This document shows positions 1,331 through 33,292 of a stretch of 64,000 bases of DNA, one piece after another. The position numbers were made by a program, and so were the translations under genes. Under the pieces are notes generated by a model that did no database searches, was not told the DNA's origin, and saw nothing but the letters and a program-made list of their open reading frames with translations. The stretch lies in NCBI GenBank assembly GCA_047967505.1, contig CM106538.1; one strand, 5' to 3'. The stretch is from Dipteris shenzhenensis. Lineage: Eukaryota. Position 1 is the first letter of the stretch; each line of letters starts with the position of its first letter.

Positions 1331-1509
1331 GGCAAGGTCTTACCCGAGGTTAGTGTCTAGTGCCTTACAAGTGAAAATATGAGCAATAAAAAATATTCCT
1401 TCAAAGTACAAGCATTTAGTGTAGCAAAGGCTTGCAACCAAATTCCATACTACAAAACATAATGGAAATGATGCTTTCACTTGCATGCTTCATAAAGGTG
1501 GCTAAATGA

Positions 1510-2208: not shown

Positions 2209-2244
2209 ATAGAGGTTGCCTACGAGGAAAAAAAGAGCCCCTTT

Positions 2245-3264: not shown

Positions 3265-3318
3265 TCTTTCCCATCCCAATAGATCCTCTCTACTGAGACA
3301 GAGAGGGTGTGCTAGCTC

Positions 3319-8948: not shown

Positions 8949-9317
8949 AAAAGATGTGACATGAAGTTGGGGGTAATAAACTTCACCCACCTCTTCACTT
9001 CTTGCTGCTTTTGAACTGAGTGATAGAGATATTCATCACTTGGAAAGGGACATTAAAAAGAAGCTTTTAGCCGACTGGCCAATGTTACTATATAGCAACG
9101 CCTAGGGCTAAAACCCAAAACCTTGTGCGATGCAATCTTTCACAACTCTATTGTGGGAAAAGCAAAAATCTCTCCTTCAACCTTATATTTGATGACCTTG
9201 CTTTCCTCTTGTTGTCTCTGTGCCAACGTGGACTTAGGTAGAACAAAATGTGTGTATAGAGTAGCGGCAAAGCTTCGCTTGTACTTACATAAGGCTAAAA
9301 ATAATCCCTCTTAGAAA

Positions 9318-9800: not shown

Positions 9801-10417
9801 GAGAGAGAAGCTCTCCAACTTGTATAAATACCCCATAATGGAATGAAGCCCACACTCTTTGGGGCATTGTGTTAAGTTCTACTTTGGTATTCTAAGTAAT
9901 TGTCTCAAGTGTCCATGCTTCCTTGCACTCCACGTCCAAAAGCATGTCCTAACATTGCAACTCCTCCTCCCCTCTCCTCCAACCTTGCAACCCATCCTCT
10001 CCCTCTCCTCCCCCCTCCTCCTGCTTCCTTCTTCTCCTCCTCCTCCCTCATCCTCCTCCTCACTATAAGGCATAGGCCCTTTTAAATGTCGCTATATAGC
10101 GACGATTAAAAGAACTAAAAAAAAGGCATTAGTGGGGCTAAATAGGGCCATAGCAAGCCCTATTTTGCCCCACTAATGTTTTTTTTTTTGTAATTACAAA
10201 AAAAAGTTTTTAATGACAAAATTTCCCTTGCAAAAAGGGTGATACAAAATCGCTCAAATGAAATGATCGAGCAACAAAAGCATATACATGTCGAACATAT
10301 ACAACATTGTTTGTTACAAAATTACAATTTCGAAATGGGTGATACAAAATTGCTTAAACGAACGGATATATAAAATGACATACATGGTGAAGTATATGGA
10401 AACTACTACTACTACTA

Positions 10418-11994
10418 CTACTCATTCGAATCGTCCTCGTCAACCTTGTCCTCGTCCGCATCTTGTTGGCCTGATCCTTGGTCCTCATGAGCTGCACCTT
10501 CTCCTTGATCCTCGTCACGTGTGTTTGATCCTTGGCCCTAGTGATCGCTTGCCTCCGGTGATGGGATGCTCGAGCTTTGACCCTAAGAGTGAACTGTATA
10601 AACTGAAAATTAAATTGGAACTTAAAGAATAAAACAATTTAAAAAGTGAGATTACAAGTAGGAGTAGACTTATACCGTGCGAGCAGCCACCTCAGCCCAA
10701 TCAACCATCGCTCCCATTGCCTCTTGCTCAATACACCACAGCTTTGTTCCTATGCGAAATGCGTATCGTGTCTCTGCATCTGTAGGAAGATGACCCATCA
10801 CAGCTTGCTGTGGATCCAATTTATGAGAGTTAGAGTTAGATAAAGTGCATGTAATATGTAGTAAAACAAATAGAATAATACATTAAATGAGAAGAAGTAG
10901 ACTTACCATGGTTGCCTTGAATGCCAACCGTTCGCTTGCACCAAAGTGCGAAGTACCTACGATGTCCAGCCATCTCTTCGCAGCCCTCCTCTAACCCTCG
11001 AACATTTCGGGATGGTCCCTATTCTGCTTCTTGAAGAACTTCCACTCAGCTTTGTTTACCCAGTTGGGTTTAGCCATTCCCTTTGCGATGGAAGTATGCA
11101 AGGTTGATCTACGATGCTTCAAGACCAAACCCATGCGCTCTCACATATAATTCTCATTAAACTCCCAATTTGGCAGGTTAGGGTATTTTTGTTTTAATTC
11201 ATCGATGATCGCCTGCTTCTTTTGGTCATCTTGATACCGCCAATTGGCAGCAATGCTGCTCTTGAAGCGATGGCTCATCAACCACCTCATGGTGGCCATC
11301 ACTGCTTTATCCTTTCTATCTTCTATTACCTCTCCGACAGTCGTGATTTGATAGGAGAGATCCTCTGATGAGTAAGGAGGACTAATGGTAGCAGAGTCAA
11401 AAGGAGTGGAAGCTATGTGAGCGCTTCCGGAGCGAGGAGTGGTAGTGGGAGTAGGAGAGGGCAAGAGACCTGAGTGATACTATGTCTCCGGACCAAGTGG
11501 AGACCTGTAGGATATGAGTGTGCTAACTCATCTACATCTCCCGAGTCAGCACAACATAAGCGACCCCTCCTACGCTTCCTTCCCTTACGAGAGGTACGCG
11601 CAGGTGATGACCCCTCGGTTGAAGGGGCACGAGGGGACGGCTGGGTAGTAGGTCCAGCCGTCGATATAGGGGAGGGAATTGCTGAGGTCCTCTGAGATAG
11701 CAGAGAGAAGAATCTTGTTGCCTCTTCATCGGTCATCTGCACTACAAACTCATTGGGACTCCTGACAAAGCCATGTGCGGCTAGCAAAGGAGTCCCCCGA
11801 GGGGTAGTCATAGTGCTACATCCGAGAGGAGTGGGACCAGGGGTAGTCGCAGTGCTAGGTCCGAGAGGAGTCAGACCATGGGTCATCCCCTCAGGTGTCT
11901 CTTGAGAGGAATCAAAGTCCTCTGGAGCATATAGATCGTGATCTCTCCTCCTGCAAGGCTGTCCATACTCATCAGACATGCGACATGATCCCAT
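10418..11994 (-). pseudogene. TnpA/ORF2-like gene of CACTA copy 1 (three coding exons, disrupted)
   Basis: MGSCRMSDEYGQP...WRYQDDQKKQAIIDELKQKYPN...KPNWVNKAEW...GTSHFG. GT-AG introns are conserved with copy 2. Resembles Ptta/En/Spm-type TnpA. Confidence 0.7.
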
Positions 11995-12039
11995 GTCTAA
12001 CATAGACACAAACACAAAAAAAAAAAACAAAAAACAAAC

Positions 12040-14965
12040 ATAAGCATAGGCATAGGCATAGGCATAGGCAAAGGAAAAGAGGAAGAAGAGGGAAAGGAAA
12101 ATAGATTGGAAGAGGGGAAAGAGAGAAGAAGAGGGAAAGGAAAGAGGAAGAAGAGGAAAAGAAGAAGAAGAGGGAAAGGAAAAGAGATTGGAAGAGGGGA
12201 AAGAGAGAAGAAGAGGAAAAGAGGAAGAAGAGGGAAAAGAGGAAGAAGAGGGAAAAGAAGAGGGAAAGAAGAGAAAGAAGAGGGAAAAGAGGAGGAAGAG
12301 GAAAAGAGGAAGAAGAGGGAAAGGAAAAGAGATTGGAAGAGGGGAAAGAGAGAAGAAGAGGGAAAGGAAAGAGGGAAAGAAGAGAGAATAAGAGGGAAAG
12401 AAGAGGGAAAGAGAGAAAAAGAGACATATGCTCATGCATAAGCATAAGCATAAGCATGAGCATATATCTCCTCTTATGCATATGCATAAGCATAAGAGCA
12501 TAAGAGCATGAGCATAAAAGAGGGGAAAGAGGGAAGAAGAGGGAAAGGAAAAGAGGGAGGAAAAGAGGAAGAAGAGGGAAAGGAAAAGAGATTGGAAGAG
12601 GGGAAAGAGAGAAAAAGAGGGAAAGGAAAGAGGGAAAGAAGAGAGAAGAAGAGGGAAAGAAGAGGAAAAGAAGAGGAGAGAAGAGGGAAACGAGAAAGAA
12701 GAGGAGAAGAGGAAGAATAGGGAAAGGAAAAGAGATTGGAAGAGGGGAAAGAGAGAAGAAGAGGGAAAGGAAAGAGCGAAATAAGAGAGAAGAAGAGGGA
12801 AAGAAGAGGAAGAAGAGGAAAGGAGAAAGAAGAGGAAAAGAAGAGAGAAAAGAGAAGAGGAGGGAAAAGAGGAGGGAAAAGAGGAGAAGAGGAGGAAAAG
12901 AGGAGGGAAAAGAGGAGGGAAAAGAGGGGGGAAAAGAGGAGAACAGAGAAAAAGAGGGAAAGGAAAGAGAGATTGGAAAAGGGAAAAGAGGGAAAGAAAG
13001 AGAGAAGAAGAGAGAAAGGAAAGAGGGAAAAAGAGACATATGCTCATGCTTATGCATGAGCATATGTCTCCTTCTCTTATCCTCATGCATAAGCATAAGC
13101 ATGAGCATATGTCTCCTTCTCTTATGCTCATGCATAAGCATAAGCACGAGCATATGTCTCCTTCTCTTATGCTTATGCTTATGCTTATGCATAAGACTCC
13201 TCTTATGCATAAGCATAAGAGAAGGAGACATATGCTCGTGCTTATGCTTATGCATGAGCGTAATAACATGAGCATGAAAGAGGGAAAAGAGGGGGGGAAA
13301 GAGAAGAAGAGAGAAGAAGAAGGAAAGGAAAGAGAGATTGGAAAAGGGGAAAGAGGGAAAGAAAGAGAGAAGAAGAGGGAAAGGAAAGAGGGAAAAAGAG
13401 ACATATGCTCATGCTTATGCATGAGCATATGTCTCCTTCTCTTATGCTTATTCTTATGCTTATGCATAAGACTCCTCTTATGCATAAGCATAATCTCCTT
13501 CTCTTATGCTCATGCATAAGCATAAGCATGAGCATATGTCTCCTTCTCTTATGCTTATGCTTATGCTTATGCATAAGAGGAGTCTTATACATAAGCATAA
13601 GAGAAGGAGACATATGCTCATGCTTATGCTTATGCATGAGCATAAGAGCATGAGCATGAAAGAGGGAAAAGAGGGGGGAACAGAGGAGAAGAGAGAAGAA
13701 GAGGGAAAGGAAAGAGATATTGGAAAAGGGGAAAGAGGGAAAGAAAGAGAGAAGAAGAGGGAAAAAGAGACATATGCTCATGCTTATGCATAAGCATGAG
13801 CATATGTCTCCTTCTCTTATGCTTATGCTTATGCATAAGAGTCTTATGCATAAGCATAAGCATAAGAGAAGGAGACATATGCTCATGCTTATGCTTATGC
13901 ATGAGGATAAGAGCATGAGCATGAAAGAGGGAAAAGAGGGGGGAAAGAGGAGAAGAGAGAAGAAGAGGGAAAGGAAAGAGAGATTGGAAAAGGGGAAAGA
14001 GGGAAAGAAAGAGAGAAGAAGAGGGAAAGGAAAGAGGGAAAAAGAGAGAAGAAGAGGGAAAGAAGAGGGAAAGAAAAGAGGGAAAAGAGAAAGAAGAGGA
14101 GAAGAGGAAGAAGAGGGAAAGGAAAAGAGATTGGAAGAGGGGAAAGAGAGAAGAAGAGGGAAAGAAGAGGAAGAAGAGGGAAAAGAGAAAGAAGAGGAGA
14201 AGAGGAAGAAGAGGGAAAGGAAAAGAGATTGGAAGAGGGGAAAGAGAGAAGAAGAGGGAAAGGAAAGAGAGATTGGAAAAGGGGAAATAGGGAAAGAAAG
14301 AGAGAAGAAGAGGGAAAGGAAAGAGGGAAAAAGAGACATATGCTCATGCTTATGCATGAGCATATGTCTCCTTCTCTTATGCTCATGCATAAGCATAAGC
14401 ATGAGCATATGTCTCCTTCTCTTATGCTTATGGTTATGCTTATGCATAAGACTCCTCTTATGCATAAGCATAAGAGAAGGAGACATATGGTCATGCTTAT
14501 GCTTATGCATGAGCATAAGAGCATGAGCATGAAAGAGGGAAAAAGAGGGGGGGAAAGAGGAGAAGAGAGAAGAAGAGGGAAAGGAAAGAGATATTGGAAA
14601 AGGGGAAAGAGGGAAAGAAAGAGAGAAGAAGAAGGAAAAGAGGGGGGGAAAGAGGAGAAGAGAGAAGAAGAGGAAAAGAGAAGCACGAGCATATGTCTCC
14701 TTCTCTTATGCTCATGCATAAGCATAAGCATAAGCATGAGCATATGTCTCCTTCTCTTATGCTTATGCTTATGCTTATGCAACAGAAGGAGACATATGCT
14801 CATGCTTATGCTTATGCATGAGCATAAGAGAAGGGGGAAAGAGAGAAGAAGAGGGAAAGGAAAGAGTGAAAAAGAGGGGGAAAGAGATTGAAAGATTGAA
14901 GGAGAAGGAGAAGGAAAGGAGGGAAAGAAGAGAAGAGAAGAGGGAAAGAAGAGGGAAGAGAGGGG
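12040..14965. repeat. Compound low-complexity array: purine-only GAAGAGGGAAA modules interleaved with (GCATAA)n/(TTATGC)n inverted modules; lies in the TnpA-like leader intron
   Basis: Seen directly in the sequence. It explains the long spurious ORFs on both strands. Confidence 0.9.
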
Positions 14966-15619
14966 AAAAGAGGGTTCCTACACCCATCACTGTAGCTAGT
15001 GCTTAAGGTGCTAGCTGTAGGCCAATGCAAATAACAAAAATAACAAATGGAAAAAAGAGGAAGCACTTACTTGGAATAGTACATCCCGCTCGGTGTTTTG
15101 TGGACTGGCCCTACAAAAGAGAGAAAACATACCATTTTCAAATAAGATGTTAGAGGAAGGAGGAGATTACAAAAGCAACTTCTCAAAGAGATTGGATTGA
15201 GGAGACAAGGAGAAAGAGAAGGAAGAGAAATACAAAAAAGACTAGAAGAGGTGAGTCTTCTTTCTTTCTTGAAATCTCATTTTTTGTTTCAATCCTTTGA
15301 AATCAAGCATGAAAACTAGTACACAGCTTTAGCAATATAAGAAGAAGCACTCACAAAACGAAATCTCACAAAAAACTACATACATTGTTCAAAGAGACTC
15401 ACCTTCTTGAAAAACTTCCTTTCAAGAAACCAAAGAGGGAGAAGGGTGCAGAGGGAGCACAAGTACTAGGAGAGGGGTGAGTAGTGGTGAGGAGTAAAGA
15501 ATAGAGTGGGAGGTCATTGGAAATAGGTGGGAGGAGAGATTGCTTTGCTTGCAATAGAGATTAGAGAGTGTTAAAGAAAGCGCCATGCATCGCATCGAGT
15601 TTCAGTTTTAACCCACAGC

Positions 15620-15692
15620 ATCGCTATATAGCGACACTATTCTGTTGCTATATAGCGTTGGAATAGAGCCAAACATCACCATATAGCGACGC
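15620..15692. promoter_or_regulatory. Internal cluster of (G)TCGCTATATAGCGA(C) palindromes between the divergent CACTA genes
   Basis: Three perfect or near-perfect copies ~110-180 bp upstream of the TnpD ATG at 15797. The same position is occupied in copies 2 and 3. Confidence 0.65.
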
Positions 15693-15837
15693 TTTAAGAC
15701 ATTTTATGTTTGAAGTTAAAAAAGAAGCTCATAGATCATATTTTATAACTGTTAATATATTTCCTTGCAACTTATGCTGTGATTTTATAAGTGTAGATGG
15801 AAGGGACGAGTTTGATGATGCACCAACGCTTGAAAGC

Positions 15838-18800
15838 ACATAAGTGCTTGATTGGATAACATACCTAGCAACGTGTTTTTTGACGGATGTGCATGACACT
15901 AGAGCAAAAATAGTATTTAATGCTCGATCGACCATGCAAAGCATATCTGATGGGCACAATACTTTGCACAGACCTTCAACTAGGTGGAATTTACTTACAT
16001 GCAAAGTGGCACGCCCATCGCATAAGTGCTTGATCAGATAACACACATAGCAGTGTGTTTTTTTACGGATGTGCATGGCACTAAGGCAAAAATTGTATTT
16101 AATGCTCGATCGACCATGCAAAGCATATCCGATGGTCACGATACTTTGCACACACTTTCAACTAGGTGTAATTGACTTACATGCAAAGTGGCATTCCCAT
16201 CGCATAAGTGCTTGATCGGATAACACACCTAAGAGCGTGTTTTTTTACGGATGTGCATGGCACTAAGGCAAAAATGGTATTTAATGCTCGATCGACCATG
16301 CAAAGCATATCCGATGGGCATAATACTTTTCTCATACCTCAACCTAGGTGGTATTAAAATGTTGTCAAAGAGGCACACCCATCCGATAAGTACTTGGTCA
16401 GATAACATACCTAAGGGCGTGTTTTTTTGCGGATGTGCATACCACTAGGAAAAAAACGGTGTATAATGCGTGATCGACCATGCAAATCATATCCGATGGT
16501 GACAATACTTTGCGCACACCTCAACCTAGTAGAAACGGACTTGTGTGCAAACTGGAGCCCCCATTCGATAAGTACTAGTTTGAATAATACACCTAGGACC
16601 GTGTTTTTTCATGGTTGTGCATGACACCAAGGCAAAAACGGTGTTTTATGCTTGATCGACAATGCAAAGCATATCCGATGGGCACAATACTTTGCACACA
16701 CCCTCAACTAGGTGGAATCGACTTACATGCAAAGTGGCACGCCCATCCCATAAGTTCTTGATCGGATAACATACCTAGCAGCGTGTTTTTTGACGGATGT
16801 GCATGACACTAGAGCAAAAATAGTATTTAATGTTCGATCGACCATGCAAAGCATATCCGATGGACACAAAACTTTTCGTATGCCTCAACCTAGGTGGTAT
16901 TGAAATGTTCGCAAGGAGGCACACCCATCCGATAAGTAATTAGTCAGATAACACACCTACCAGCGTGTTTTTTTACGAATGTGCATGGCACTAAGGCAAA
17001 AATGGTATTTAAAGCTCAATCCACCATGCAAAGCATATCTGATGGGCACGATACTTTGCACACACCTTCAACTAGGTGGAATAGACTTATATGCAAAGCG
17101 GCATGTGCATCCTGTAAGTGCTTGATTGGATAACATACCTAGCAGCGTGTTTTTTGACGGATGTGCAAGACACTAGAGCAAAAATAGTATTTAATGCTCA
17201 ATCGACCATGCAAAGCATATCCGATGGGCACAAAACTTTTCGTACACCTTAACCTAGGAGGTATTGAGATGTTCTCAATGAGGCACACCCATTAGATAAG
17301 TACTTGGTCAGATAACACACCTAATGGCGTGTTTTTTTGCGGATGTGCATATCATTAGGAAAAAAATTGTGTATAATGCGTGATCGACCATGCAAATCAT
17401 ATCCGATGGTGACAATACTTTGCACTCACCGCAATGTAGTTAAAACGGACTTGTGTGCAAAGTGGAGCCCCGATCTGATAAGTACTTATTTGAATAACAC
17501 ACCTATGGCCGTGTTTTTATATGGTTGTGCATGACACTAAGGCAAAAACGGTGTGTTATGCTTGATCGACAATGCAAAGCATATCCGATGGGCACAATAC
17601 TTTGCACACACCTTCAACTAGGTGGATTTGACTTACATGCAAAGTGGCACGCCCATCGCATAAGTGCTTGATTAGATAACATACCTAGCAGCGTGTTTTT
17701 TTACGGATGTGCATGGCACTAAGGCAAAAATGGTATTTAATGCTCGATCAACCATGCAAAGCATATCCGATGGGCACGATACTTTGCACACACCTTCAAA
17801 TAGGTGGAATTGACTTACATGCAAATGTCATTCCCATCGCATAAGTGCTTGATCGGATAACACACCTAGCAGCGTGTTTTTTTACGGATGTGCATGGCAC
17901 TAAGGCGCAAATGGTATTTAACGCTCGATCGACCATGAAAAGCATATCCGATGGGCATGATACTTTGCACACACCTTCAATCAGGTGGAATTGACTTACA
18001 TGCAAAGTGGCACGCCCATCACATAAGTGCTTGACCAGATAACACACCTAGCAGCGTGTTTTTTTACGGATGTGCATGGCACTAAGGAAAAAATGGTATT
18101 TAATGCTCGATCGACCATGCAAAGCATATCCGATGGGCACGATACTTTGGACACACCTTCAACTAGGTGGAATAGACTTACATGCAAAGTGGCACGCCCA
18201 TCCCATAAGTGCTTGATCGGATAACATACCTAGCAGCGTGTTTTTTGACGGATGTGCATGACACTAGAGTAAAAAAAGTATTTAATGCTCGATCGACCAT
18301 GCAAATGATATCCGATGGGCACAAAACTTTTTGTACGCCTCAACCTAGTGGTATTGAAATGTTCTCAATGAGGCACACCCATCCGATAAGAACTTGGTCA
18401 GATAACACACCTAATGGCGTGCTTTTTTGCGGATGTGCATATCATTAGGGAAAAAATGGTGTATAATGCGTGATCGACCATGCAAATCATATCCGATGGT
18501 GACAATACGTTGCATGCACCTCAACGTAGTTGAAACGAACTTGCGTGCAAAGTGGATCCCCCATCTGATAAGTACTTATTTGAATAACACACCTATGGCC
18601 GTGTTTTTATATGGTTGTGCATGACACTAAGGCAGAAACGGTGTGTTATGCTTGATCGACAATGCAAAGCATATCCGATGAACACATAACTTTGCACACA
18701 CCTTCAACTAGGTGTAATTGACTTACATGCAAAGTGGCACGCCCATCGCATAAGTGCTTGATCAGATAACACACCTAGCAGCATGTTTTTTTACGGATGT

Positions 18801-20330
18801 GCATGGCACTAAGGCAAAAATGGTATTTAATGCTCGATCAACCATGCAAAGCATATCGGATGGGCATGATACTTTGCACACACCTTCAACTAGGTGTAAT
18901 TGACTTAGATGCAAAGTGGCATTCCCATCGCATAAGTTCTTGATCGGATAACACACCTAGCAGCGTGTTTTTTTACGGATGTGCATGGCACTAAGGCAAA
19001 AATGGTATTTAATGCTCGATCGACCATGCAAAGCATATCCGATGGGCATAATACTTTTCTTATACCTCAACCTAGGTGGTATTAAAATTTTGTCAAAGAG
19101 GCACACCCATCCGATAAGTACTTGGTCAGATAACATACCTAAGGGCGTGTTTTTTTGCGGATGTGCATACCACTAGGGAAAAAACGGTGTATAATGCGTG
19201 ATCGACCATGCAAATCATATCCGATGGTGACAATACTTTGCACACACCTCAACCTAGTTGAAAGAGACTTGTGTGCAAACTGGATACCCCATCCGATAAG
19301 TACTAGTTTGAATAACACATCTAGGACTGCGTTTTTTGATGAATGTGCATGACACTAAGACAAAAACGGTGTTTTATGCTTGATCGACAATGCAAAGCAT
19401 ATCCGATGGGCACAATACTTTGCACACACCTTCAACTAGGTAGAATCGACTTACATGCAAAGTGGCACGCCCATCCCATAAGTGCTTAATCGGATAAGAT
19501 ACCTAGCAGCGTGTTTTTTGACAGATGTGCGTGACACTAGAGTAAAAATAGTATTTAATGCTCGATTGACCATGCAAAGGATATCCGATGGGCACAAAAA
19601 TTTTTGTACGCCTCAACCTAGGTGGTATTAAAATGTTCTCAATGAGGCACACCCATCCGCTGATAAGTACTTGGTCAGATAACACACCTAATGGCGTGTT
19701 TTTGTGCGAATGTGCATATCATTAGGGAAAAAATGATGTATAATGCGTGATTCAAATCATATCCGATGGTGACAATACTTTGCACGCACCTCAATGTAGT
19801 TAAAAAAGACTTGCGTGCAAAGTGGAGCCCCCATCTGATAAGTACTTATTTGAATAACACACCTATGGCCGTGTTTTTATATGGTTGTGCATGACAGTAA
19901 GGCAGAAACAGTGTGTTATGCTTGATCGACAATGCAAAGCATATTGGATGGGCACAATACTTTGCACACACCTTCAACTAGGTGGAATTGACTTACATGC
20001 AAAGTGGCATTCCCATCGCATAAGTACTTGAGCAGATAACACACCTAGCAGCGTGTTTTTTTTACGGATGTGCATGACAGGAGAAAAAATAGTATTTAAT
20101 GCTCGATGGACCATGCAAAGCATATCCGATGGGCACAACACTTTTTGTACACCTCAACTAGGTGGAATTGACTTACATGCAAAGTGGCACCCGCATCCCA
20201 TTAGTGCTTGATTGGATAACATACCTAGTAGGCTCATGTTTTTTTACGGATGTGCATGACACTAGAGCAAAAATAGTATTTAATGCTTGATTGACCATGC
20301 AAAGGATAACTTGGCATGATCGGATAACTT
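15838..20330. repeat. ~182-bp satellite array, ~25 units, with variant monomers and higher-order organisation
   Basis: A TAAGTRCTTG-like anchor recurs at 15841, 16023, 16205, 16387, 16569, 16751 and onward, with period 182. Confidence 0.95.
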
Positions 20331-20453
20331 CTCCCACCAATAAATTAAGTACTAATTAAAAATTATAATAAATGAGTAGATTATTAAAAAGAGACTAATA
20401 TTTATGTAATTGTTGCTACTGCAGCTTGCTTGCGAAGGACTCTCACAAAGGAG

Positions 20454-23400
20454 ATGGCTATAGATTTTGTTTCAGGGATGGATGTGATTTTATGTAGCAA
20501 AAGAGAAGTAGTTGCATTTGCTACAATCCATGATAGTGATCCCAATTCACTTTGCCACTTTTGAAGACTTGGCGAAGATAAGGTGGCAGTTACTGTATCA
20601 AAGATTCTTAGCGCACATGTTGACCTAAAGTATAAATGTGGAGATATGGAAACACTTGGAGATGTTATGCCCTACAATACATCCAACAAATCATTTATAG
20701 CATGGGACAAAGATGAGACTTATGCAACAGACATTAATATCAAGAATACAAAGTGCACCACCTTGGATTTTACTATAGGGGACATTTTACAAATGAGATC
20801 ATTTGCAAATAAGATTGTAGCAGAAGGTGAAGTATTGGGATTTGAACAAGTGGAGCAATGGTCATTTGCGCAGATGAGGATTCTAAAAGTCACTGATGAT
20901 GGTATGGTTGATAACATAACATCCTTATGTGATCCCTACTATGAGGTAGGCAAGAATATGAGATGGAGCATGCAATTTTTAAACATGAGAAAGAGGCACA
21001 TGGTTTTCAATGATAAAGACAACGTATACTACAATATCAAAGGACCTAAAAAGCGTGCCCATGTGCCAGGCTCTATCACTTCAAATGGGGATGATTTCAA
21101 TATACTCAATTATAGAAGTGACATCTTATCTGGAGTGGATGAGTTCATTGGTTCCAAGAAACAAAATGATTTTAGAAGCGAAGCCTTATCTGGGGTGGAT
21201 GAATTCTTGCACAGTGAGAAAGGCAAAGGTTTCAATAGCGATGTCTTGTTAAGTGTGGATGAGTTCATGCATATTAACAAACCTGGTGTCAATCAAGGTT
21301 GTGGATTTGTGAAAGCCATGCAAGATGTCCCAATGAGTGATGTTCTCTCAGGAGTGGAAGAGTTTCAAGGTTCTCAATACTCTCGTAGAATATTGAATTC
21401 ATTGAATGGTCCTAAGAGTATGTTAAAAACGAGGATGAGATCAACAGAGGATTATTCAGTATCTAACTTTGATTGTGATATGAACAAGGATGCAACGACC
21501 AATCATGGATGCTTGGTTACAAACAAATGTGAGGAGAAGAAGTGCATAAATACAGATAACAACGTGCACGAGGAACGAAAATGGTCATACATATGCATGA
21601 AGAGAAAGAGAATCCAGGCAGATCCACAAAAGCAACCAAAGAGGAAGAGAGTAATGAAGGAGGAGAACATGTTAAATGCATTGGGATATCTATGTTGCAA
21701 GCGAAGATGTATGCACTTCATTGATCTTGCAGACATCAGGGAATGTAGAGGACATGTGTGGCAAAGAAGGGGAAGCGAAAGAAATGAATACCTTCTCACA
21801 AGTCTCTCTTGCTTTCTTCAGAATGGCAATAAAAGGCTAAGTTCAAGACAAAAGGTAAAACCTCTCGTAAATGGAAAAAGGATTTGCAATAAGGCATATT
21901 GCAATATTACTGGATTATCCCATGGTACATATTGGGATTTAGTCACCAAGGCAAAGGGCGGCAACAAATTTAGCATTCACGGTAATAGAAAAAGGTCCAA
22001 ATCAAGAATCTCAACTGTCAGGGCAGCATCAATTTTGCAAGACTTCATACATGAAAATGCTTTGCCTCAACCCCATATATCTACCAAACTCCCTAACGGT
22101 GATGCGATCACTGAAATGCACCTTCCAATGGGCTTGACAAAGCTCGAAGTATTTGACTCTATTGCAGAAAAGCAAAGGCAAAGAGGGGATGTCGTAGCTT
22201 CTTCTCATACTTTGTATACTCTTTGGAAGAAGAACTTTGGATATGTTAAAATCCCAAGGAGGCAAAAAATGTCAAAGTGCAATGTCTGTGATGATTTAAA
22301 GCGAGCGATTGAGAGTGCAACATGTCCAAATCAAAGGGAATTATACAAAAAAAACTGAAAATCTCATCATGACCTTATTCGACATTCCAGACAAAAATAT
22401 GCATTTTGGAAGGAGCAAGCTATCTCGCATCCTGATGACTACATGTGCCTTATTGTAGATGGCATGGATCAGAATACAACAACATTGCCTCGTTTTGTTG
22501 CCACTCCACCTAAATTACAAGGAAAGCACTTTCTAAAGACACATCTATGTGGAGTGTTAGTGCATGGAATTAAGTTCTTTGCAGATATATGGATTGATTC
22601 CTTGCATGTACATGATAGCAATCAAGTTGTAACATCTATTATGAAGGCAATTCGCAATGTACATGCAGAAAAAGGTCGCCTGCCACCGACTTTGAGAATA
22701 CAAGCTGATAATTGCTGGCGAGAAAATAAGAATGTACTCATGTTTGCATTCTGCTCCATGCTAGTTGCTCATCGAATCTTCAATGAGGTCGAATGTGGAT
22801 TTTTGTATGTTGGGCATACATATGAGGATATCGATCAGGTTTTTAGCACAATCTCAAGGGAGCTTAAATGCTCGGGGGGGTCACTCATCATATGTAACTC
22901 TATCACGTGAGTTTAACAAAAGGATATTTTTTATTTCTAAAATTTACAGAAATAAATATACATAAGGGACTATTTTAAATAGTTTTGGAAAAAAATTACA
23001 GATTTGTATAGAAAAGGGGTACATTTTATTAATGAAAAATTTTACAAATAAGGGATTTTAAATATAGGCCTTGAACGCACGTGATATAGAGGGTTTGTAC
23101 ATAGTGACCCCCCCGAGATTAGATGCAAGGATGTGGAGACAATAGATGACTTGGTAAGAAGATGTGGCAGGCAAGTTGGTGGTCGTAAGGAAAGTACAGT
23201 ATGTGAGAGGCTCGAAAGAATGTATGATTGGAAGAGCTTCATTCTACCTTTCATACAAACGGGTGGTGATGCATTGACAGGTCATACCAATCCACACTAC
23301 TTTCGTTTTTTTTTAAAAGATGAAAAACCCGTAATGCAATGGCAATAGTATTCTCATGATACAAAATGGGAACGTGAAGAACCTTACAGTCTCTTAACTT

Positions 23401-24185
23401 CAATTCCCAGCAAGGAAAGGTATCCAACATGGGCTCCTATACAAGAATTTAATGAGAGGTCTAATTGTGAAATAGATGGATTAAAAGCATTTATTACATA
23501 CAAAGAGGAAATGCTCCGGAGATATCCTGATTCGAAGCCTACTTGGAGAGAACACACTACCACTGTGATTAACAAGACACGAAATTTAATAAAGGACCTT
23601 GAGAGAATGCGAGGCTCAAAGGATGTCAAGGAAGAATGCAATATGTTTTGGCCAAATGTTCATAACGATTTGCGCCCAGCTCCAGTCTTTGAAAATGAAT
23701 TTGTATCATTACTCGCACGTCCATATTGTGGACCAAAGAAGAGAGAGTTTATGCCACAAGTAGATATAGAGGTCGATTGTTTTGTTGTGGTTCGGCCATC
23801 GGCGGATGATGAATATGAGAATGTGAAGTTTTGGGTTGCAAAAGTAGTTGATGTGCAAAGAGATGACCAAGGGAGAGCTACAACATTTACAGTGGTATGG
23901 TATGAGCCAAAGGGCAGGAAGGAGAATATGGATAACAACACATTATATACTAATTGTATAATGAAGGAGTGGGTCCCAAATGATGAAGTGATCTCTCAAG
24001 TTTTGACGGAGACAATCATAGTGTCTTGGCATTCAAGGGCAAAGAAATCAAAGAAGCACATGGGATATGAGGTAGAAGGAAAAATAAAAATACCACAGCA
24101 AACTATTTTGCATATACACGAATTTTTAAGGATGCTCGCCATGGAGGAAGTAGAAGGAGATAGTGCAAATGAAGAATGTCCATGA
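20454..24185 (+). pseudogene. Large Sola-like / DUF7869-type DDD transposase; a single reading frame broken by three stops and a MITE
   Basis: ORFs starting at 20454, 20583, 22443, 23133 and 23511 are all in one frame. Motifs: CCKRRC, NGKRICNKAYCNITGLS, KMSKCNVC, CLIVDGMDQ, LRIQADNCWRENKN, FLYVGHTYEDIDQVFS, HTNPHYFRF. Confidence 0.75.
22871..23117. mobile_element. MITE inserted in the transposase
   Basis: Perfect 15-bp TIR CTCGGGGGGGTCACT/AGTGACCCCCCCGAG, flanked by CTTAAATG/ATTAGATG (8 bp, 6/8 match). Removing the element and one flank restores ELKCKDVETIDDL. Confidence 0.9.
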
Positions 24186-24244
24186 TTAAAGCTTTGTATT
24201 GAAGTCCATTGAAGGATTTTATTTGGGTACTAGGTAAGGAGCCA

Positions 24245-24710
24245 ATCCAAGACAATTATAATCAGAGTCATCACCTCCTATGTCAAATGAGAGTCAAAAT
24301 ATGCACTGGATGTCACCCAAGGGTCAAGGCTTGCCAAGACAATAGGGAGTTAATGCAGATGGCACCTGGCAAGGGACTATCACATTGAGCAATAAGACAA
24401 TGGGGAGTCAATGCACCCAAGGGGCAAGGCTTGGCAAGATAACTTGTGGGAGTTAATGCAGATGGCACTTGTATTTTGCACTAGATGTCACCCAAGGGTC
24501 AAGGCTTGGCAAGACAACAGGGAGTTAATGCAGATGGCACCTGGCAAGGGACTATCGCATTGAGCAATAAGACAATGGGGAGTCAATGCACCCAAGGGGC
24601 AAGGCTTGGCAAGACAAGCCTAGGTCAAATTATGCAGATGGCAACTGGCAAGGGACTGTCGTGACATTGAGCAATAAGACAATGGGGTGTCAAATTATGC
24701 AGATGGCACG
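24245..24710. repeat. Degenerate tandem repeats (~175-bp duplication built from ~45-bp CAAGACAA-GGGAGT-AATGCA subunits) just 3' of the transposase
   Basis: GCACTRGATGTCACCCAAGGGTCAAGGCTTG at ~24303 and ~24478; repeated GCAGATGGCAC. Confidence 0.8.
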
Positions 24711-25005
24711 AATTGAGGCTCTTTAAGAGCAACAATTTAAATTGTAAACATATGTTCAATCTATATCATTTTGGATATAAAGACTCTAGCTAAGAGCAAC
24801 GTCTCTCAATGTAATCATATACATAAAGCTATAATTGCTATTATCCTTCTTTGGATCAATACAAAACTTGGGTCTTATGGCATCATGTCTTCTTTCTATT
24901 TATTAAAAGTTTTGTTAAATTTTGTGCATATTGCCGAGTGACAATGTTATTTTCATGAAATATTTAAGTCTCCTTTCATGGATTTATAAATTTATCACGT
25001 CAACA

Positions 25006-25361
25006 AAAAACGTCAAGGAAAAATATTAAAAATAATTAAATTAACAAATAACTTAGATATATCTAGAATTTCTAATATAGGATTATTTCAAATTCTTGCA
25101 TGTTGGTGCAAAAGTATAGATTGAAAAAACAATATTTTTATGTGAATATGATAGAGCCACAAAGTGAACTTTTGATTTGGAAAGGAAAAACGTCAAGGAA
25201 AAATATTAAAAATAATTAAATTAACAAATAACTTAGATATAGCTAGAATTTCTAATATAGGATTATTTCAAATTCTTGCATGTTGGTGCAAAAGTATAGA
25301 TTGAAAAAACAATATTTTTATGTGAATATGATAGTGCCACAAAGTGAACTTTTGATTTGGG
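25006..25361. repeat. Near-perfect 180-bp tandem duplication
   Basis: AAAAACGTCAAGGAAAAATATT at 25006 and 25186, with only a few mismatches across the unit. Confidence 0.9.
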
Positions 25362-25489
25362 AAGAAACTATTTAGAAAGTAAAATTTTGATTTGGAAAGG
25401 ATATCATAAAGTAAAGTTTTCATTTGGGATTTTTGGGCTTCGTCCAAAAACAACACAAAAAGTCCAAAATTAATGAAATAGGTGTTGAT

Positions 25490-26600
25490 ACGCTATAAAA
25501 GACGAACAGGAAAAAATATATATATAACAACAATCACAATGTAATGAACCAAGATGATCTAGATCAACATTGTGTGATCACACATCTTGAGCTCATTGGG
25601 AAGGTCATCGTCGAGATACCTACATACAATATATATGAATATATGATAGTAGACCAAAGTGAGGTGAATTCAAATGGCTGAAGCGAGCCATCACTTGGCC
25701 TTGATCATAATACTACCTAATATAACATCACTCGAGGCAATATGAATCCAATCATCATCCGGCCCCAAGTGATACACACATTTAAATACATAGAAGCATG
25801 CATAAATAAGCATCATACATATTCTTGTCTCTATATTCCTCTCTCAATTGGGACGAGATGAATCTAGCCAGCCAAAGGGAGCCATCACCTGACCTTAATC
25901 CTGATACTACTAGAACATCACTTGAGGCGAGATGAATCCAACCAACTAAAGTGAGTCATCATCTGGCCTCGATTGAAACACATCATGCAATCACACACAT
26001 AGAAGCAAGCAAGCACAATCATATGACATATTTCTCTCTCTTTTCTCTCAACTAAGGTGAGGTGAATCTAGCCAGCTGAAGCAAGCCATCACCCAGCCCT
26101 AACTAAGAATAATAGCGAGGTTACTTGTAGGAGAGTGGAAAACAACGAACACACTAAAAACTACAAAAAATTCCGATGAATTTAAGTGAACTGTAGAAAA
26201 AAATAACGCAGAGGGGGCCTTTTATAGAATCCAATTCGACTACCGGCTGATATGTCCACACACCGGTCGATTTTTGTGGCCAATGCATGCATGCCATGTG
26301 TTCGGTCTATGCACACCGATCGGTGTCACACTACACCAACTAGTATTTTCCTGAGTATATCGATCGGTGTGGTGATTCACCGACCGGTTTATTTGCACCG
26401 ACCAGTAAATCCCAACATCGATTAGTATTTTTTGAAAAATACCGGTCGATGTTGGGATTTACCATTTGTTATATAGCCAGTCAACTGGTGCACGTTGACC
26501 GGTTGTAAAAAATGCATTTTTTGTGTTTTGAACATCCACCTACGTTTTTGATTCGAAAAACGTTCTTTTCTTCTAAAAAATTTACTAAAAAAATCCCAGC
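25490..26600 (-). mobile_element. Terminal ~1.1 kb of an unclassified (possibly Mutator-like) repeat, copy A
   Basis: Its reverse complement matches 41542-41769 joined to 53129-54155. Shared end (G/A)GGATWTTTTTAGTA and repeated ACCGGTCG/ACCGATCG motifs. Confidence 0.55.
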
Positions 26601-27459
26601 CCATAACGAATCCATTCATCTTGTAATAATAAAAGAAAACCACTGCGCTGGTGGCTACTCATATTCTAGTGCAACCAACCACCATGCTGGTGATAACTTA
26701 TCCTGCACTAATCCTACACTACTATCGTGCTATCCCTATGCTACTACCATGCTATCCTAAAATTTGTTGCATAGTGCTAGTTCCCTTTAGACTCGGTATA
26801 GTTAACCATCAGATTTCAACCACCGGGCTAGTTAAATCATTTAAGTACTAACATGAAATCACATATTACGAGCACCATGAGAATATCCACAAGTCCAATA
26901 AATTTTTGCAAGATTTTTATTATTTCAAGGAAATTCCAAACTCCCAACCATCTTATCAACCTCTCTATAGCAAGCATCCCCTAGCTTTGGAGGCCAATCT
27001 CCTGCACTATGGCAGACCTCTTCACACACTGCTTACTTGACTCTGCTGACTTATATGCCCATAGTAACTCCTCCTTTCGCTGGGGGTCCTCTTCATCGTA
27101 CTCTTTGCACTTTATACATCTTTAAGCCTCCTTCATGTCCTGCCAAAAGAAACCTACAACATGAGATTGACAGGTACCTTAAAGGAGCAAAAAAAACAAT
27201 AGCCAGGTAAATTAATAATCACCATCTGTGCCGACTCCAAGTAATACACCCACCACTAAAGCATGTCCTCCTTGCAGGCTATTTTCCTCCTTGTCCGAGT
27301 CTGATTCTGCGACGATGCCATCCAACATCATTTTCAGATAGAACAAAAGCATTCCAAAGTCTTTTGGGTATGCCATAGATTCACAATAGGTGGATCAATG
27401 TATAGATTTTGGATCAGTGTACAAAGTTTCGGGGCTAGATTTCGTCTGATTATTCAAAT

Positions 27460-29160
27460 ATCTTACATGGACATGTGAAATAGGTGGATATCTCAAAAAT
27501 AGATCTCCATATCAAGCATCGAGAAGGCTAGGGTGGAATCCATCAAAGCCATATGCTTGCTTGAGAAGCACTTTCCCTCGAGCATTATGACAACTCAAGT
27601 CCACTTGCTTGTGCACATAGTTGATGAGGTGGCTATTGCAGGTACCGTTCATAGTCAATGGATGTTTTTCCTCGAGTGCTTTATGAAAACTTTGAAGGGA
27701 TTTGTAAGAAAAAGAGCAAGACCAGAAGCAAGCATGGCAGAGGGATGGCTTGTGCAAGTCATTAGTATATATCACGGACCATGGATCCCGATATGCTACA
27801 GGCTTGGCATAACAAGGATGATGGTCGCATCGTTGGCGAGGTTTCCCAAGGAAAAGGGATCGAAAGAAAGATGAGCGAAGAGCAAATGGAGAAATTCAAT
27901 AAGTTTTGTATCCTCAATAACCCTGAGATGCAGAAGTGGATCGAGAGATATGAAGTGACCAAAGTAGAAAGAATAAATGCAAGACGAGATTCAGAGTAAT
28001 GTACAGGCCATCGCAACCATATCCATGGGATTTGGCTCTTCTCCCCACTCACATTCACTTGATTGGCTACAACTGGCTCTATGTAAAGCCGAATGCGATG
28101 GAGAGGCAATAAACGAGCACGAGCGAGAGTTATCATCTAGGTGTATGATGCATGTAAGTTTCTTACCTTTTGACATAGTTAAGTAATTATTTGTGGCAAT
28201 ATACACTATAAAATAGATGCATCTTCATTGTTTTAATGATGCTCTTTTATAGTACAAAAAGTACAGTGCATTATGGTCATATGGATGACATTTTCACGTG
28301 GAACGCATCGATTCAAAGAGAGTCACGTATGATTGTGGAGTCATGGCTAACTTCACACAAGATAGCCGAGCAAGTGCTTCGGATACCAATTTTCTCTCCT
28401 CATAATTGGATTATTGTGGAACCATATGCAAAATCTATGAAGTTGATTTTAGACCATTTAGTATTTTCATTCTTGATGTAAAATGGTTTAGAACTATTTA
28501 CAACGATCCCCATGCGACAGTGAGAAAAGATAGTAGCGGTTTCTTTGCAATAGACTCCACCAAACATTGGATTGATGAAAGTGATACTTTTGTTCTTCTC
28601 GAGCACTGTGACCAGGTGCATACTAATGATTTAATTAACCAAAGCTTTCGTCTTTAAAGATCCATTGATACATGTACTTGAGCATAATTTCATATATATA
28701 ATTGACGACATCTGGCACCCATCTTCAATATAGGTGGTTTTTCATTTGGATCATTCCGATCCAAGATGGTGGTACGTGATCCAAGTTGCACCATGAAGTA
28801 AGCAAAATTTTGAAGATAGAGATGTGGATATGGAGATGCCACTACCAATTCCGGATCCAATTGATCTTGATGAATCTAGCGAAGAAGATGAAGATCACAA
28901 TATGAGCCAAAAGGAAGATGCGCATAATGACATCACATAGAAGGAAGATGGAGATCACAATATTGAGGAAGAAGACAACGATCATCAAGAATCACCGCAC
29001 TTTATTGAAGAAGATGATCAAGTACTTTTAGGTGAATGTACGATGCTAGAGTACGATGATGATATAGGAGATCAACTCAGTATAGAGTTGGAGATAGACT
29101 TGTTTGGCATCTTAGACTTGGCTCAAGATGAAACAGTTGATGTAAATGCTCTTCATTGAT
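27460..29160 (+). pseudogene. 3' half of TnpD of CACTA copy 1 (DUF4218- and DUF4216-like exons)
   Basis: HLLVHIVDEVAIAGTVHSQWMF...RARPEASMAEG and YCGTICKIYE...DVKWF. Collinear with 51080-52790. Confidence 0.9.
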
Positions 29161-29669
29161 TTTTTTCATCTCAAACTTGGACATGAATATATGAGCTTCA
29201 AAGGCTTGATGTACATGCTCTCATATTTTTATTCTCTCAAAAGATCGAACATGTATGAAAATTTAAAAAAAAAATTCATTGGAAAAAACTAACTTTTAAG
29301 GCCTATATGAGTAAAAAACCTCTCTGAAAAATGTCACTTTTATAATAGTCGCTATATAGTGACGTTTGCCTAAAGACACTATATAGTGATGCTTTACGGG
29401 ATGTGCTTTTCATATCGATGATTAGCACCCCGTACGCACTAAATGTTGGTACTTAAACGGTCCAATAGGATCCATGTGTAGTAGTGCCTCCTCCTCCTCC
29501 TCCCTCCTCTCTCTTCTTTCCCTCATGCTGTTACACCTTCTTCCTCTCCCACTCCTATACTCCCCCTAAACCCTTAGCTCCTCAACCCTTAATCTCCATG
29601 ATCTACGAGGGAGACAAGGAGGAGACAAGTTCTCCACCATGTACTCTACCATGAACCTTGAATCCTTCT

Positions 29670-29790: not shown

Positions 29791-30130
29791 TGCAACCCCC
29801 AATGAAGGTGAAAGCCTTCATTACCTCAACCATGATGATACATGTTCCTTTTACACATGCATGCACTATGTTTGCTCACTACATTTAAGCCTACGTCTGT
29901 CACCAGAATATGACTCGAGGTCCTAAGCCACACATATACTATAAATGACAACCCCAATATATCTGTAGGTGACAAAAAGCCTCAAAGCCCTGCATACTGA
30001 GAATACCCTGCTCTTCCCATAGAAGCTGTGGAATAGAGCCAATACCTCCTCTCTCTTTCCCACACTCCTCACCCCTTTCTAAACCCTCTCCCAACACATG
30101 TTCCCTCTCCATCCTTCTCCCTCTTTGCTC

Positions 30131-33100
30131 GTGTGAAAGAGGGGAAAAGAGAAGGAAAAAATAAAGGGGAAAAGAAGAAAAGAGAGGAAAAAAGAGAAAG
30201 AATATGCTTATGCATGAGCATATGAGCATATGCTCATGCATAAGCATAGGCAAATGCATATGCTTATGAAGAAAGGAGAAAAGAATATGATGAAAGAGAG
30301 GAAATAAGAGAGGGGAAAAGAAGACAAAGAAGAGGAAAAAAGAGAAGAAAAAAGAGAGGGGAAAAGCATATGAGCATATGAGCATATGCTCATGCATAAG
30401 CATAGGCAAATGCATATTCTTATGAAAAGAAGAGAAAAGAGGATGAAAGAGAGGAAATAAGAGAGGGGAAAAGAAGAGAAGGAAGAGGAATGAAGAGGGG
30501 AAAAGAGAATGAAAAAAGAGAGGGGAAAAGAAGAGAAGAGAGGAAGAAGAGGAAATAACAAAGGGAGGGAACGAGGGGAGAAAGAGGGAGGAAAAGAGGG
30601 AAAGAAGAGGTAATAAGAGAAGAGAGAGGAAGAAAGGGTTCCTACACCCATCTCTGCACTAGCTACAGACCAACGCAAATAACGGAAACAAAAAAAGGAA
30701 AAAAGAGGAAATACTTTCTTACGTGGAAAAGTCCTGCTCGGTGTTTCGTGGACTAGCCCTACAAAAGAGAGGAAACATACCATTTTTTAGATAACTAGTT
30801 AGAGGAAGGAGGAGTTTGGAGAAGCAACTTTCCAAAGGGATTGGATTGAGGGGACAAGCATAAGCCTACAAACAAGGAGAAAGCACGAAAGGAAGGGAAA
30901 GAGGAGGAAGAGAAATACCAAAAAGAGAAGAGCAAATCTCGTTTTTTGTCCTTAATCTTTGAAAGTCAAGCATGAAAATTAGCACATAGGCTTAGCAAAG
31001 CAAGGAGAAACATGCTTCGACTCTCAAAAAATGAAATCTCACAAAAAATGAACCTACATTGGTTAAAGAAACACACCTTCTTGAAAAACTTCCTTTCACA
31101 CAAGTAGAGAGGGAGAAGGGTGGAGAGGGAGTACAAGTGTCAATGGGAGAGGGGCTTGATAGGAGTGAGGAGTGTGGGGAATAGAGGAGGAAAGAGAGAT
31201 CACCAAATAGAGAAGGAAAACATGGGAGGAGAGATTTTTGCTTTTCTTGCAATAGAGTTGTGAAAGATGGCATCGTGCGGTGTTTCGGGTTTTAGACTCC
31301 CAGCATCGCTATATAGCGACACTGGTCATTTGTTATATAGCGACACTTATACCCTAAAAGTATTGCTAGGTAGCAACACTCATACCCTAAAAGTATCGCT
31401 ATATAGCGATACTTATAGCGATCTTTAACCCTAAGTATCACTATATAGCGACACTTATACCCTAAAAGTATCACTATTTACTTATACTCCTAAAGCATCG
31501 CTATATAGCGACAAAACAGAGCAAAGCGTCGCTATATAGTGACAATTCAGGGCACTTGATCTGGAAAGGAGCTCATGGGTGGCTATTTTTTGGATCTTTA
31601 TGGATTTCCTTACATTTTGTGTTGTGACTTTGGAGGTGTGTAGATGGAAGGGACGAGTGAAAGCTTGTCAGATGATGCACCGAGCATAGTGGCTTACGGA
31701 GAGGTTGTATTGTCATTGCACTCATTGCAAGCGAAAAGTATGACATCAATGCCGTATTGTCATGCGCCACTTGAGGATGTATGGGGAGGAGCCCAAACCA
31801 GTACCCACCATTGGTGGTGCACATGGTGATAGATCATCAGAAAGTCAATGCTATTTGAGTTCGTGATTCATATTGCATGCGTACACGACACGAAATCTTG
31901 AGACAAGATCTTATATTTACACAAAACCTTGAGACAGGATGAGGAGGGTGGTGTCCGTATACCTTCACACTTTGAGAAGGAGTATAGTCTCCCGGATGTG
32001 CTAAATGATAACGAGGGTATTGTGGACATGATGGATTCTATTTTTAGGGGCAATGCAACTGATGTCTGAGTATGAGGCTGTGTACATGGTAACTTTGATA
32101 GAGGAGTTATAGATCTTAGGGATAAGAGTGCGGGTCTTTGATATTTCTAGAGCTCCTAGACATACCAATGACATTTTTGTGTAGAACACATCGATTCAAA
32201 GAGAGTCGCGTATGATTGTGGAGTCATGGCTAACTTCACACAAGATAGCCGAGCAAGTGCTTTGGATACCAATTTTCTCTCCTCGTAGTTGGATTATTAT
32301 GGGACCATACACAAAATCTATGAAATTAATTTCAGATGATTTAGTATTTTCATATGTATAAAATGGTTTAGAACTATTTATGATGGTCTTTGTTCTTCCT
32401 GAGCATTGTGAGCAGGTGCATACTAATGATTTAATTAATTGAATCTTTCGTTTTTATATATTAATTGTTACATGTACTTAAGCATAGTTTCATATAATTG
32501 ATGGCATTTGGCACCCATCTTCAATATAGGTGGTTTTGTCATGTAGATCATTCTGATCCAAGATGGTGGTATGTGATCCAAGTTGCATCACCAAGTAAGC
32601 ATATTTTTGAAGATAGAGACGTGGATATGGAAGTGCCACTACCAATGCCAGATCCAATTGATCCAGATGAATTTAGAGAAGAAGATGAAGATCACAATAT
32701 GAGCCAAGAGAAAGATGTGCATAATGACATCATATGGGAGAAAGATGGAGATCACGATATTGAGGAAGAAGAAGACGATCATCAAGAATAACCCGACTTT
32801 ATTGAAGAAGATAATCAAGTCTATGGTGAACGTACGATGCTAGAGTACGATGATGACATAGGAGATCAACTTAGTATAGAGTTGTAGATATACTTGTTTG
32901 GCACACTAGACTTGGCTCAGGATGAAGCCAAGTCTCAAACGTGGACATGAATATATGAGCTTCAAACTTGATGTACATGCTCTTGTACTTTTATTCTTTC
33001 AAAGGATCAAACATGTATGAAAAGAAATCTTTTTGTCATTGGGTAAAACTACCTTTAAAGGTTGGTATGGGGAAAAACACTCTGTAAAACATCGCTATAT

Positions 33101-33292
33101 AATGACCTTATACAAGTTTGGCAATTATTGCTATATAGCGATACTTTATAAACGTCGCTATATAGCGACGTTTATAAAAGTGTCGCTACATAGCGATACT
33201 TTTTAAGCCCACTTTGCATACCGATGATTTGCGCCCCATGCATGCTAAACGTCAGTGCGTAACCATCGGAAAAGGGCCTATGCCTTGTAGTG
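30131..33292. mobile_element. CACTA copy 3: left-truncated, multiply deleted non-autonomous derivative
   Basis: Contains the microsatellite remnant, the leader exon block, a palindrome cluster at 31305-31545, TnpD exon 1 (MEGTSESLSDD at 31644) and joined TnpD pieces. Ends GGCCTATGCCTTGTAGTG. Confidence 0.85.

Follow-up and report, generated by a model that had tools for sequence, protein, structure and literature searches.

Introduction

Capture of gene fragments and of satellite DNA (satDNA) arrays by CACTA (En/Spm) transposons has been described in Chenopodium and in other angiosperms (PMC8978399). A link between CACTA elements and satellites also appears in a second report, where a satellite originates from a tnp2 fragment (PMC7320549). 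Here, we describe a locus of Dipteris shenzhenensis in which a 182-bp satellite array and a decayed transposase gene of the DUF7869 family stand side by side within a CACTA element. The locus lies in a stretch of 64,000 nucleotides (GenBank assembly GCA_047967505.1, contig CM106538.1), which was analysed as a whole and is called the window below. A sequence-only reading of the same stretch had proposed a composite transposase, possibly carrying and binding its own satellite. We do not retain this proposal, since both components lie inside a block that replaced CACTA sequence. The region is probably a passenger block in a CACTA (En/Spm) transposon rather than a self-contained element made of a satellite and a transposase.

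The CACTA elements of Chenopodium likewise have recognisable ends and foreign interior DNA that includes a satellite array (PMC8978399). In these elements, captured gene fragments are found 5′ of ORF1 and satellite arrays in the 3′ region (PMC8978399). In contrast to the Chenopodium cases, the block described here is 11.6 kb long, replaces the 5′ half of Tnp2 and holds a transposase gene that is almost complete and belongs to a different superfamily. The locus is one more CACTA element with foreign DNA, a phenomenon already described. It is a clean example, in which a CACTA transposase gene is partly replaced by a satellite array and by the transposase gene of another superfamily, and it shows the joint transport of satellites and dead transposase genes by an unrelated element.

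A further comparison concerns the Sola transposons (Sola1/2/3; Bao et al. 2009, reviewed in PMC10741241). In this review, they are described as encoding DDD transposases and as having 4-bp target-site duplications (TSDs) and terminal inverted repeats (TIRs) of 11-1124 bp; they occur in the moss Physcomitrella and are uncommon in flowering plants. The gene at the present locus also encodes a large transposase with a DDD pattern, a likeness that is compatible with Sola and not specific to it. The distribution of Sola includes moss, and one relative of the N-terminal part of the window protein comes from a liverwort. In contrast, TIRs and a 4-bp duplication were not found at the window's copy, which is a single copy. 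The gene is filed here under DUF7869 and the Sola label is kept as a lead; the equation of DUF7869 with Sola is an assumption taken over from the sequence-only reading. Set against the proteins of Pfam family DUF7869 (PF25273), including those that combine PF25273 with PF26133, a family that we take to be DUF8039, the gene is a clear member, but a pseudogene. The literature searched contains no mention of DUF7869, PF25273, PF26133 or DUF8039.

A Foreign Block in a CACTA Element

Comparison of the window with itself brings out a repeat family in at least four copies, two of which are complete; its Pfam domains assign it to CACTA (En/Spm). Copy 1, the host of the region, is 19,426 bp long (10061-29486, + strand); it starts with CACTATAAGGCATAGGCC, ends with GTGTAGTAGTG and has CCT on both flanks. 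Copy 2 is a complete element of 11.4 kb (41770-53128), with CACTACAAGGCATAGGCC at its 5′ end, GTGTAGTAGTG at its 3′ end and a perfect ACT/ACT TSD. Copy 3 occupies positions 30135-33292, and at its 3′ end (33292) the 5′ terminus of copy 2, CACTACAAGGCATAGGCC, is found in exactly inverted form. A further CACTA fragment (58868-60046) carries a Transposase_21 domain at 59132-59776 (E=4.7e-38). The CACTA... and ...TAGTG termini are present at both ends of copies 1 and 2 and at the 3′ end of copy 3.

The insertion of copy 2 is confirmed because both of its flanks belong to one repeat, here called repeat F (41542-41644 and 53141-54156), and this repeat has an uninterrupted inverted paralogue at 25487-26599, which serves as an empty-site control. 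The CCT/CCT duplication of copy 1 is weak when taken alone because the flanking tract is CCT-rich.

Copies 1 and 2 are collinear over 10083-12133 (83.6%), 12039-15000, 14816-15811 (76.7%) and 27454-29489 (87.5%) in the coordinates of copy 1. Homology to copy 2 ends within 15811-15849 (around 48749-48765 in copy 2) and restarts abruptly at 27454, which corresponds to 51078. Between these limits, copy 1 contains a foreign block of 11,604 bp (15850-27453, + strand) that is absent from copy 2. At the position of the block, copy 2 has 2.3 kb (48750-51077) holding the Transposase_21 5′ half of the Tnp2 gene. Hence, the block is a replacement and not an insertion, since homology to copy 2 stops on the left and resumes on the right with about 2.3 kb skipped. 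The Pfam domains agree with this picture: the Tnp2-type pair of copy 2 consists of Transposase_21 (50004-50600) and DUF4218 (51133-51753), and copy 1 retains DUF4218 only (27503-27871), as a remnant in the 3′ part of the element that follows the block (27454-29486, + strand).

The left junction between CACTA and block sequence was located at 15839-15849 (+ strand), where the motif CATAAGTGCTT is approximately common to the CACTA copies and to a satellite monomer. In a four-way alignment, copy 1 tracks the other two CACTA copies (2 and 3) as far as ...AGTG(G)CTT, beyond which it agrees with the satellite (GATTGGATAAC...). As the satellite monomer has CAT(T/A)AGTGCTT in the same register, the left join falls in a stretch of about 11 bp of approximate microhomology. 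No TIRs were found around the open reading frame (ORF) of the DUF7869 gene, around the array plus the ORF, or around the whole block, with seeds of 9-10 nt and a single copy, so that short or degraded ends could be missed. Similarly, no TSD, including a 4-bp duplication, was found around the ORF at the single copy examined.

The Satellite Array and the Tail of the Block

From left to right, the block consists of the satellite (4.5 kb), the DUF7869 gene and a tail of non-coding repeats (3.3 kb), one of them a copy of repeat F. The satellite array extends over 15839-20308, with no strand assigned, and Tandem Repeats Finder gives it a period of 182 bp, 24.6 copies, 78% matches and a score of 4815. 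The array of about 4.5 kb that had been announced upstream of the gene is thereby recovered, and so is the second repeat block that had been placed after the gene. Our own cutting of the array yields 25 monomers of about five subtypes, arranged in a higher-order structure. Indeed, a run of five monomers at 16021-16930, with the subtype pattern ABCDE, is repeated at 18749-19661 with 91-97% identity per monomer, and monomers of different subtypes are 66-80% alike. A long head-to-tail array with higher-order repeats, it has the organisation by which satellite DNA is recognised. It breaks off in the middle of a monomer at its 20308 end, 145 bp before the ATG of the DUF7869 reading frame. When compared with the rest of the 64-kb window, including the CACTA copies and the 3′ side of the gene, the 182-bp consensus gives chance matches of 11-21 nt only. 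The window contains one array and one copy of the DUF7869 gene.

On the 3′ side of the gene, the second tandem-repeat block (24302-24693, no strand assigned) has a unit of about 175 bp in about 2.2 copies and is unrelated to the 182-bp satellite. It is followed by an additional repeat of 180 bp present twice (25006-25364) and by the unrelated repeat F copy (25487-26599, - strand), the other copy of which was the insertion target of CACTA copy 2. A six-frame Pfam search of the 3.3-kb tail (24186-27452) returned nothing at E<=0.1.

The DUF7869 Pseudogene

The DUF7869 (DDD-type) transposase pseudogene occupies 20454-24185 on the + strand and amounts to about 1159 codons once an inserted miniature inverted-repeat transposable element (MITE) and one copy of its target site are discounted. 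The frame is already open from 20400, and the region upstream of it is AT-rich. Three in-frame stops interrupt it, TGA at 20562, TGA at 22356 and TAG at 23346. No frameshift was found in 20454-24185, all four open pieces sharing one phase. The MITE (22871-23117, no strand assigned) is 247 bp long and has perfect 15-bp TIRs; the 8-mers that flank it, CTTAAATG and ATTAGATG, are identical at 6 of 8 positions. It interrupts the DUF7869 profile at about position 119/118. The single frame, the three stops and the MITE inside the gene were all part of the sequence-only reading, and the frame and stop positions hold exactly as given there. Partial relatives of the MITE are present at 37778-37923 and 39686-39750, with 76-81% identity.

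For the Pfam scan, the protein was translated through the stops, which were written as X. DUF7869 (PF25273) was the sole family detected, scoring 164.7 bits where 26 are required (E=2.5e-48); the MITE divides the match into two stretches. The first part of the core (22515-22870, + strand) covers profile positions 3-120 and contains IVDGMDQ, QADNCWRENKN and GHTYEDIDQ; the second (23118-23336, + strand) covers positions 118-184. The original assignment of the core to the DUF7869 type is borne out by this match. Upstream of the catalytic core is a Cys-rich region (CCKRRC ... C ... KCNVC; 21696-22289, + strand), in which C415, C419, C478, C609 and C612 correspond to columns conserved among homologues.

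Several columns of the core are conserved. The D of IVDGMDQ falls in a column that is D in 165 of 165 aligned homologues and that of QADNC in one that is D in 163 of 166, and the columns of the two D's of the GHTYEDID stretch are D in 146/159 and 154/159. The K of ENKN is found in all 166 aligned homologues and GHT in 159-160 of 160. At the column where 157 of 160 homologues have H, the window protein has Y. Judged from these alignments, the conserved acidic columns of the core form a D/D/D pattern, all of which is present in the window protein, so that the three-Asp RNase H-like pattern with preceding Cys motifs, as first described, can be kept. With three stops, one MITE and a GHTH-to-GHTY change, the gene is nearly full-length but dead, and the window's copy of the protein is inactive.

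Relatives of the protein are numerous. Residues 1-805 were compared with 1.84 billion representatives in an exhaustive phmmer search. At E<=1e-3 there are 4072 relatives, of which 1507 reach E<=1e-10 and 105 reach E<=1e-30; 150 of the 4072 were listed and form the set of homologues referred to below. In 149 of these 150, the best stretch starts at query residue 340 or beyond, that is, with the Cys region and the core. The exception among the 150 listed is a 243-residue fragment, P0002, which matches residues 1-225 with 75% identity. A word-index search with the N-terminal 634 residues found no homologue among 4832 candidates. The nearest full-length relatives, none of which has a name other than "hypothetical," are 33-44% identical across the core. 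A search of the PDB with the whole-family profile (alignment A5) gave 0 matches at E<=10, and in the six frames of the window none of the three domains (DUF7869, N-terminal, C-terminal) occurs a second time. On the strength of its profile match and its relatives, the gene is assigned to a large eukaryotic DUF7869 family.

Between the N-terminal domain and the Cys-rich region, a linker encoded at 21126-21443 (residues ~225-330) contains the peptide S-[DE]-x-L-[SL]-[GS]-V-[DE]-E-F repeated four times in tandem. This four-repeat linker was not seen in the distant relatives inspected.

Domain Architecture

The N-terminus of the protein forms a predicted beta-rich domain that is remotely TNP1/En/Spm-like (20466-20756, + strand; residues 5-101; alignment A3). 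A profile was seeded with residues 1 to ~90 and with five similar N-termini. Among the 150 listed homologues, it locates this first-type domain at the N-terminus of eight, four of which are outside the seed (E=1.5e-20 to 1.4e-6). The window's own N-terminal domain has no Pfam match, PF03017 included, even at E<=10; among nine aligned members, one reaches E=0.12 with PF03017 (TNP1/EN/SPM, Transposase_23). When alignment A3 was searched against a set of 5.8 billion proteins, seven matches were obtained. Three A3 matches, P0029, P0082 and P0152, carry PF25273 and PF26133 in their precomputed annotation. Another (E=7.4e-7) is a protein of 302 residues from the liverwort Riccia sorocarpa that has PF03017 and PF26133 and bears the UniRef name "Transposase Tnp1/En/Spm-like domain." A local Pfam scan of the Riccia sorocarpa protein places PF03017 on its second barrel (residues 131-173, E=1.7e-8). 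This second-type, PF03017-like domain also occurs in other DUF7869 relatives, and alignment of the first type with the second (PF03017) type by hhalign gives a probability of 84% and an E-value of 7.7e-6 over 48 columns. Profile comparisons therefore support the view that the first N-terminal domain is a genuine recurrent module and a remote homologue of TNP1/En/Spm domains. The Tnp1/En/Spm-like N-terminus of the sequence-only reading is kept in this form, for the first domain; its weaker second copy around IVAEGEVLG is dropped, as it has no profile match at E<=1 and an hhalign probability of at most 3.7%.

Structure prediction adds a lead for the fold of this domain. The AlphaFold (AF2) model has low confidence (pLDDT 63.7), and a Foldseek search with it returns weak SH3-like barrels (PWWP, the KOW region of NusG, Tudor), the best at E=0.076 and none at or below 0.001. 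An SH3-like barrel may be envisaged on this basis. Searches of the ESM Atlas with the N-terminal domain gave a best score of 0.81, which is inside the tool's stated noise range, and a PDB search with the N-terminal profile gave a match at chance level only (E=0.68).

At the other end of the protein, the region FWVAKVVDV ... TVVWY (23778-24089, + strand; alignment A4 and AF2 model) is predicted to form a BAH-like beta-barrel. The FWVAKV...VVWY region is common to 20 of the 150 listed homologues at E<=1e-2. A profile made from the 17 sequences of alignment A4 finds the BAH-PHD protein SHL in the PDB (5znp, residues 16-112) with E=0.036. The AF2 model of the domain has a pLDDT of 79.3, and in a Foldseek search BAH-containing proteins account for 31 of the 35 rows listed and occupy the top 22 without interruption, all with E>=0.045 and with TM-scores of 0.21-0.36. 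These rows comprise AIPP3, EBS, SHL, polybromo, DNMT1, BAHCC1, Rsc2, ORC1, ZMET2, MTA1 and DIM2. The BAH domains of the plant chromatin readers SHL, EBS and AIPP3 are the closest likeness to the predicted barrel. There is no Pfam BAH match in the window protein. Since the fold and profile matches are weak but consistent, the C-terminal domain is considered BAH-like with moderate confidence, in line with the BAH/Tudor-like barrel proposed earlier.

Taken together, the plant-type DUF7869 subfamily starts with one or more TNP1-like small beta-barrel domains, followed by a Cys-rich region and then by the DDD RNase H-like core, and ends in a BAH-like barrel. As this architecture is family-wide, the combination of domains did not arise at the present locus. 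An intact DUF7869 protein would cut and paste its own element; its N-terminal domains and Cys region may ensure DNA recognition, and its BAH-like domain may read chromatin. No literature on the family-wide combination of TNP1-like barrel, Cys region, DDD core and BAH-like barrel was found in the search made. The architecture extends beyond this locus; it suggests that targeting is guided by chromatin and that CACTA accessory proteins and a second transposon superfamily have a domain in common.

Origin of the Block

If the region is a passenger block, as we think probable, CACTA copy 1 would have lost 2.3 kb together with the 5′ half of Tnp2, and 11.6 kb of foreign, repeat-rich DNA would have come in its place. 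Most likely, this would be genomic DNA taken up as filler when the gap left by CACTA excision underwent error-prone double-strand repair or the template was switched; CACTA elements have been proposed to acquire genes and satellites by this route. Satellite and gene would then be adjacent as they were already neighbours, or nested, in the donor DNA. Several points weigh against this scenario. A length of 11.6 kb is large for filler, and captured gene fragments named in PMC8978399 are short (80 bp; ~110 + ~200 bp). Short terminal repeats of the Sola type, which go down to 11 bp (PMC10741241), could have escaped seeds of 9-10 nt on a single copy. The microhomology at the left join is approximate (10/11 to the satellite; the CACTA copies differ by a single indel or mismatch) and may have arisen by chance, and the CCT/CCT target duplication that bounds copy 1, lying as it does in a CCT-rich tract, is weak. 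Finally, one copy of the gene and one of the array are in hand, and an association of the two may be ancestral and precede the capture.

Other histories have to be set against capture as filler. An autonomous DUF7869 (Sola-type) transposon, devoid of satellite, might have inserted into the CACTA element or beside the satellite, later deletions having removed its ends as well as 2.3 kb of CACTA sequence. Nesting is usual in the window, with a MITE in the gene and CACTA elements in repeat F and probably in another CACTA element, and a near-complete ORF with an AT-rich upstream region is what a once-autonomous copy would leave. However, neither TIR nor TSD was found around the ORF, and several independent deletions are required to account for the exact replacement of CACTA sequence and for the microhomology on the satellite side; we regard nested insertion as unlikely. 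It is rather improbable that the array grew from CACTA sequence at the break, as is reported for Jozin of Chenopodium, with the DUF7869 gene arriving separately. Although the first monomer opens with 11 bp that are also CACTA sequence, and the CACTA family already has 3 kb of internal tandem arrays, the consensus is unlike any CACTA copy in the window past these 11 bp.

The association first proposed would make the 182-bp array a set of binding sites for the TNP1-like N-terminal domain of a DUF7869 element, array and gene moving as a unit. Three points count for such a composite: the binding of subterminal repeats by the En/Spm accessory protein, the remote relationship of the N-terminal domain to TNP1/En/Spm domains, and the end of the array 145 bp before the ATG. 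Against it, the far end of the array is joined to CACTA sequence by microhomology and not by an element terminus, and the 3′ side of the gene has neither related repeats nor inverted copies. The higher-order structure and the divergence of about 20% between monomers are typical of free satellite DNA. Moreover, the relatives that share the architecture are on contigs of 3-5 kb, which give no sign of a 4.5-kb array and are too short to exclude one. Since the array and the gene are within a CACTA element, with a microhomology junction, no TIRs and unrelated repeats, the composite model is not supported, and we hold it to be very unlikely. A last and still more remote view would see in the DUF7869 proteins with TNP1-like N-termini and a BAH-like C-terminus an undescribed plant lineage of Sola-like DDD transposases, with a module for binding DNA or chromatin that also occurs in CACTA accessory proteins. 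One transposase would then have been swapped for another at the locus, giving a hybrid element that has CACTA ends and TNP1-like domains that might recognise the CACTA subterminal repeats or the satellite. It is because the DUF7869 gene is oriented as Tnp2 and sits exactly where the 5′ half of Tnp2 is missing that a swap, instead of an accidental capture, comes to mind; we give it hardly any weight.

Other Features of the Window

The CACTA family has tandem arrays of its own, distinct in position from the satellite. In copy 1, GA-rich and CATAAG-palindrome arrays lie at 12039-15000 (+ strand), and they are found in copy 2 too, at 43991-47680. Such an internal array is about 3 kb long and has palindromic CATAAG/CTTATG units interspersed among GA-rich units of 43-50 bp; a shorter version is present at 30135-30640. 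A subterminal 12-mer palindrome, CGCTATATAGCG, occurs 22 times in the window, for 0.08 expected, and is clustered in the CACTA elements. Its clusters lie near CACTA ends and in one internal region (for example, 41903-42017, 48553-48626 and 31307-31541). CGCTATATAGCG is a candidate binding motif of the CACTA accessory protein.

Inverted pieces of CACTA-internal sequence are present on both flanks of copy 1, at 9076-9208 and 30047-30139, and they abut one another in the coordinates of copy 3 (31187/31191). This suggests that copy 1, together with about 1.4 kb of CT-rich flank, is inside another, inverted CACTA element.

Rfam and tRNA scans of the window returned nothing. Besides the CACTA family, the window carries two remnants of long terminal repeat (LTR) retrotransposons. 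One, at 941-8287 on the - strand, has pieces of gag, reverse transcriptase, RNase H and integrase; the other, at 56158-58301 on the + strand, has a gag of the copia type together with an SH3-like polymerase domain.

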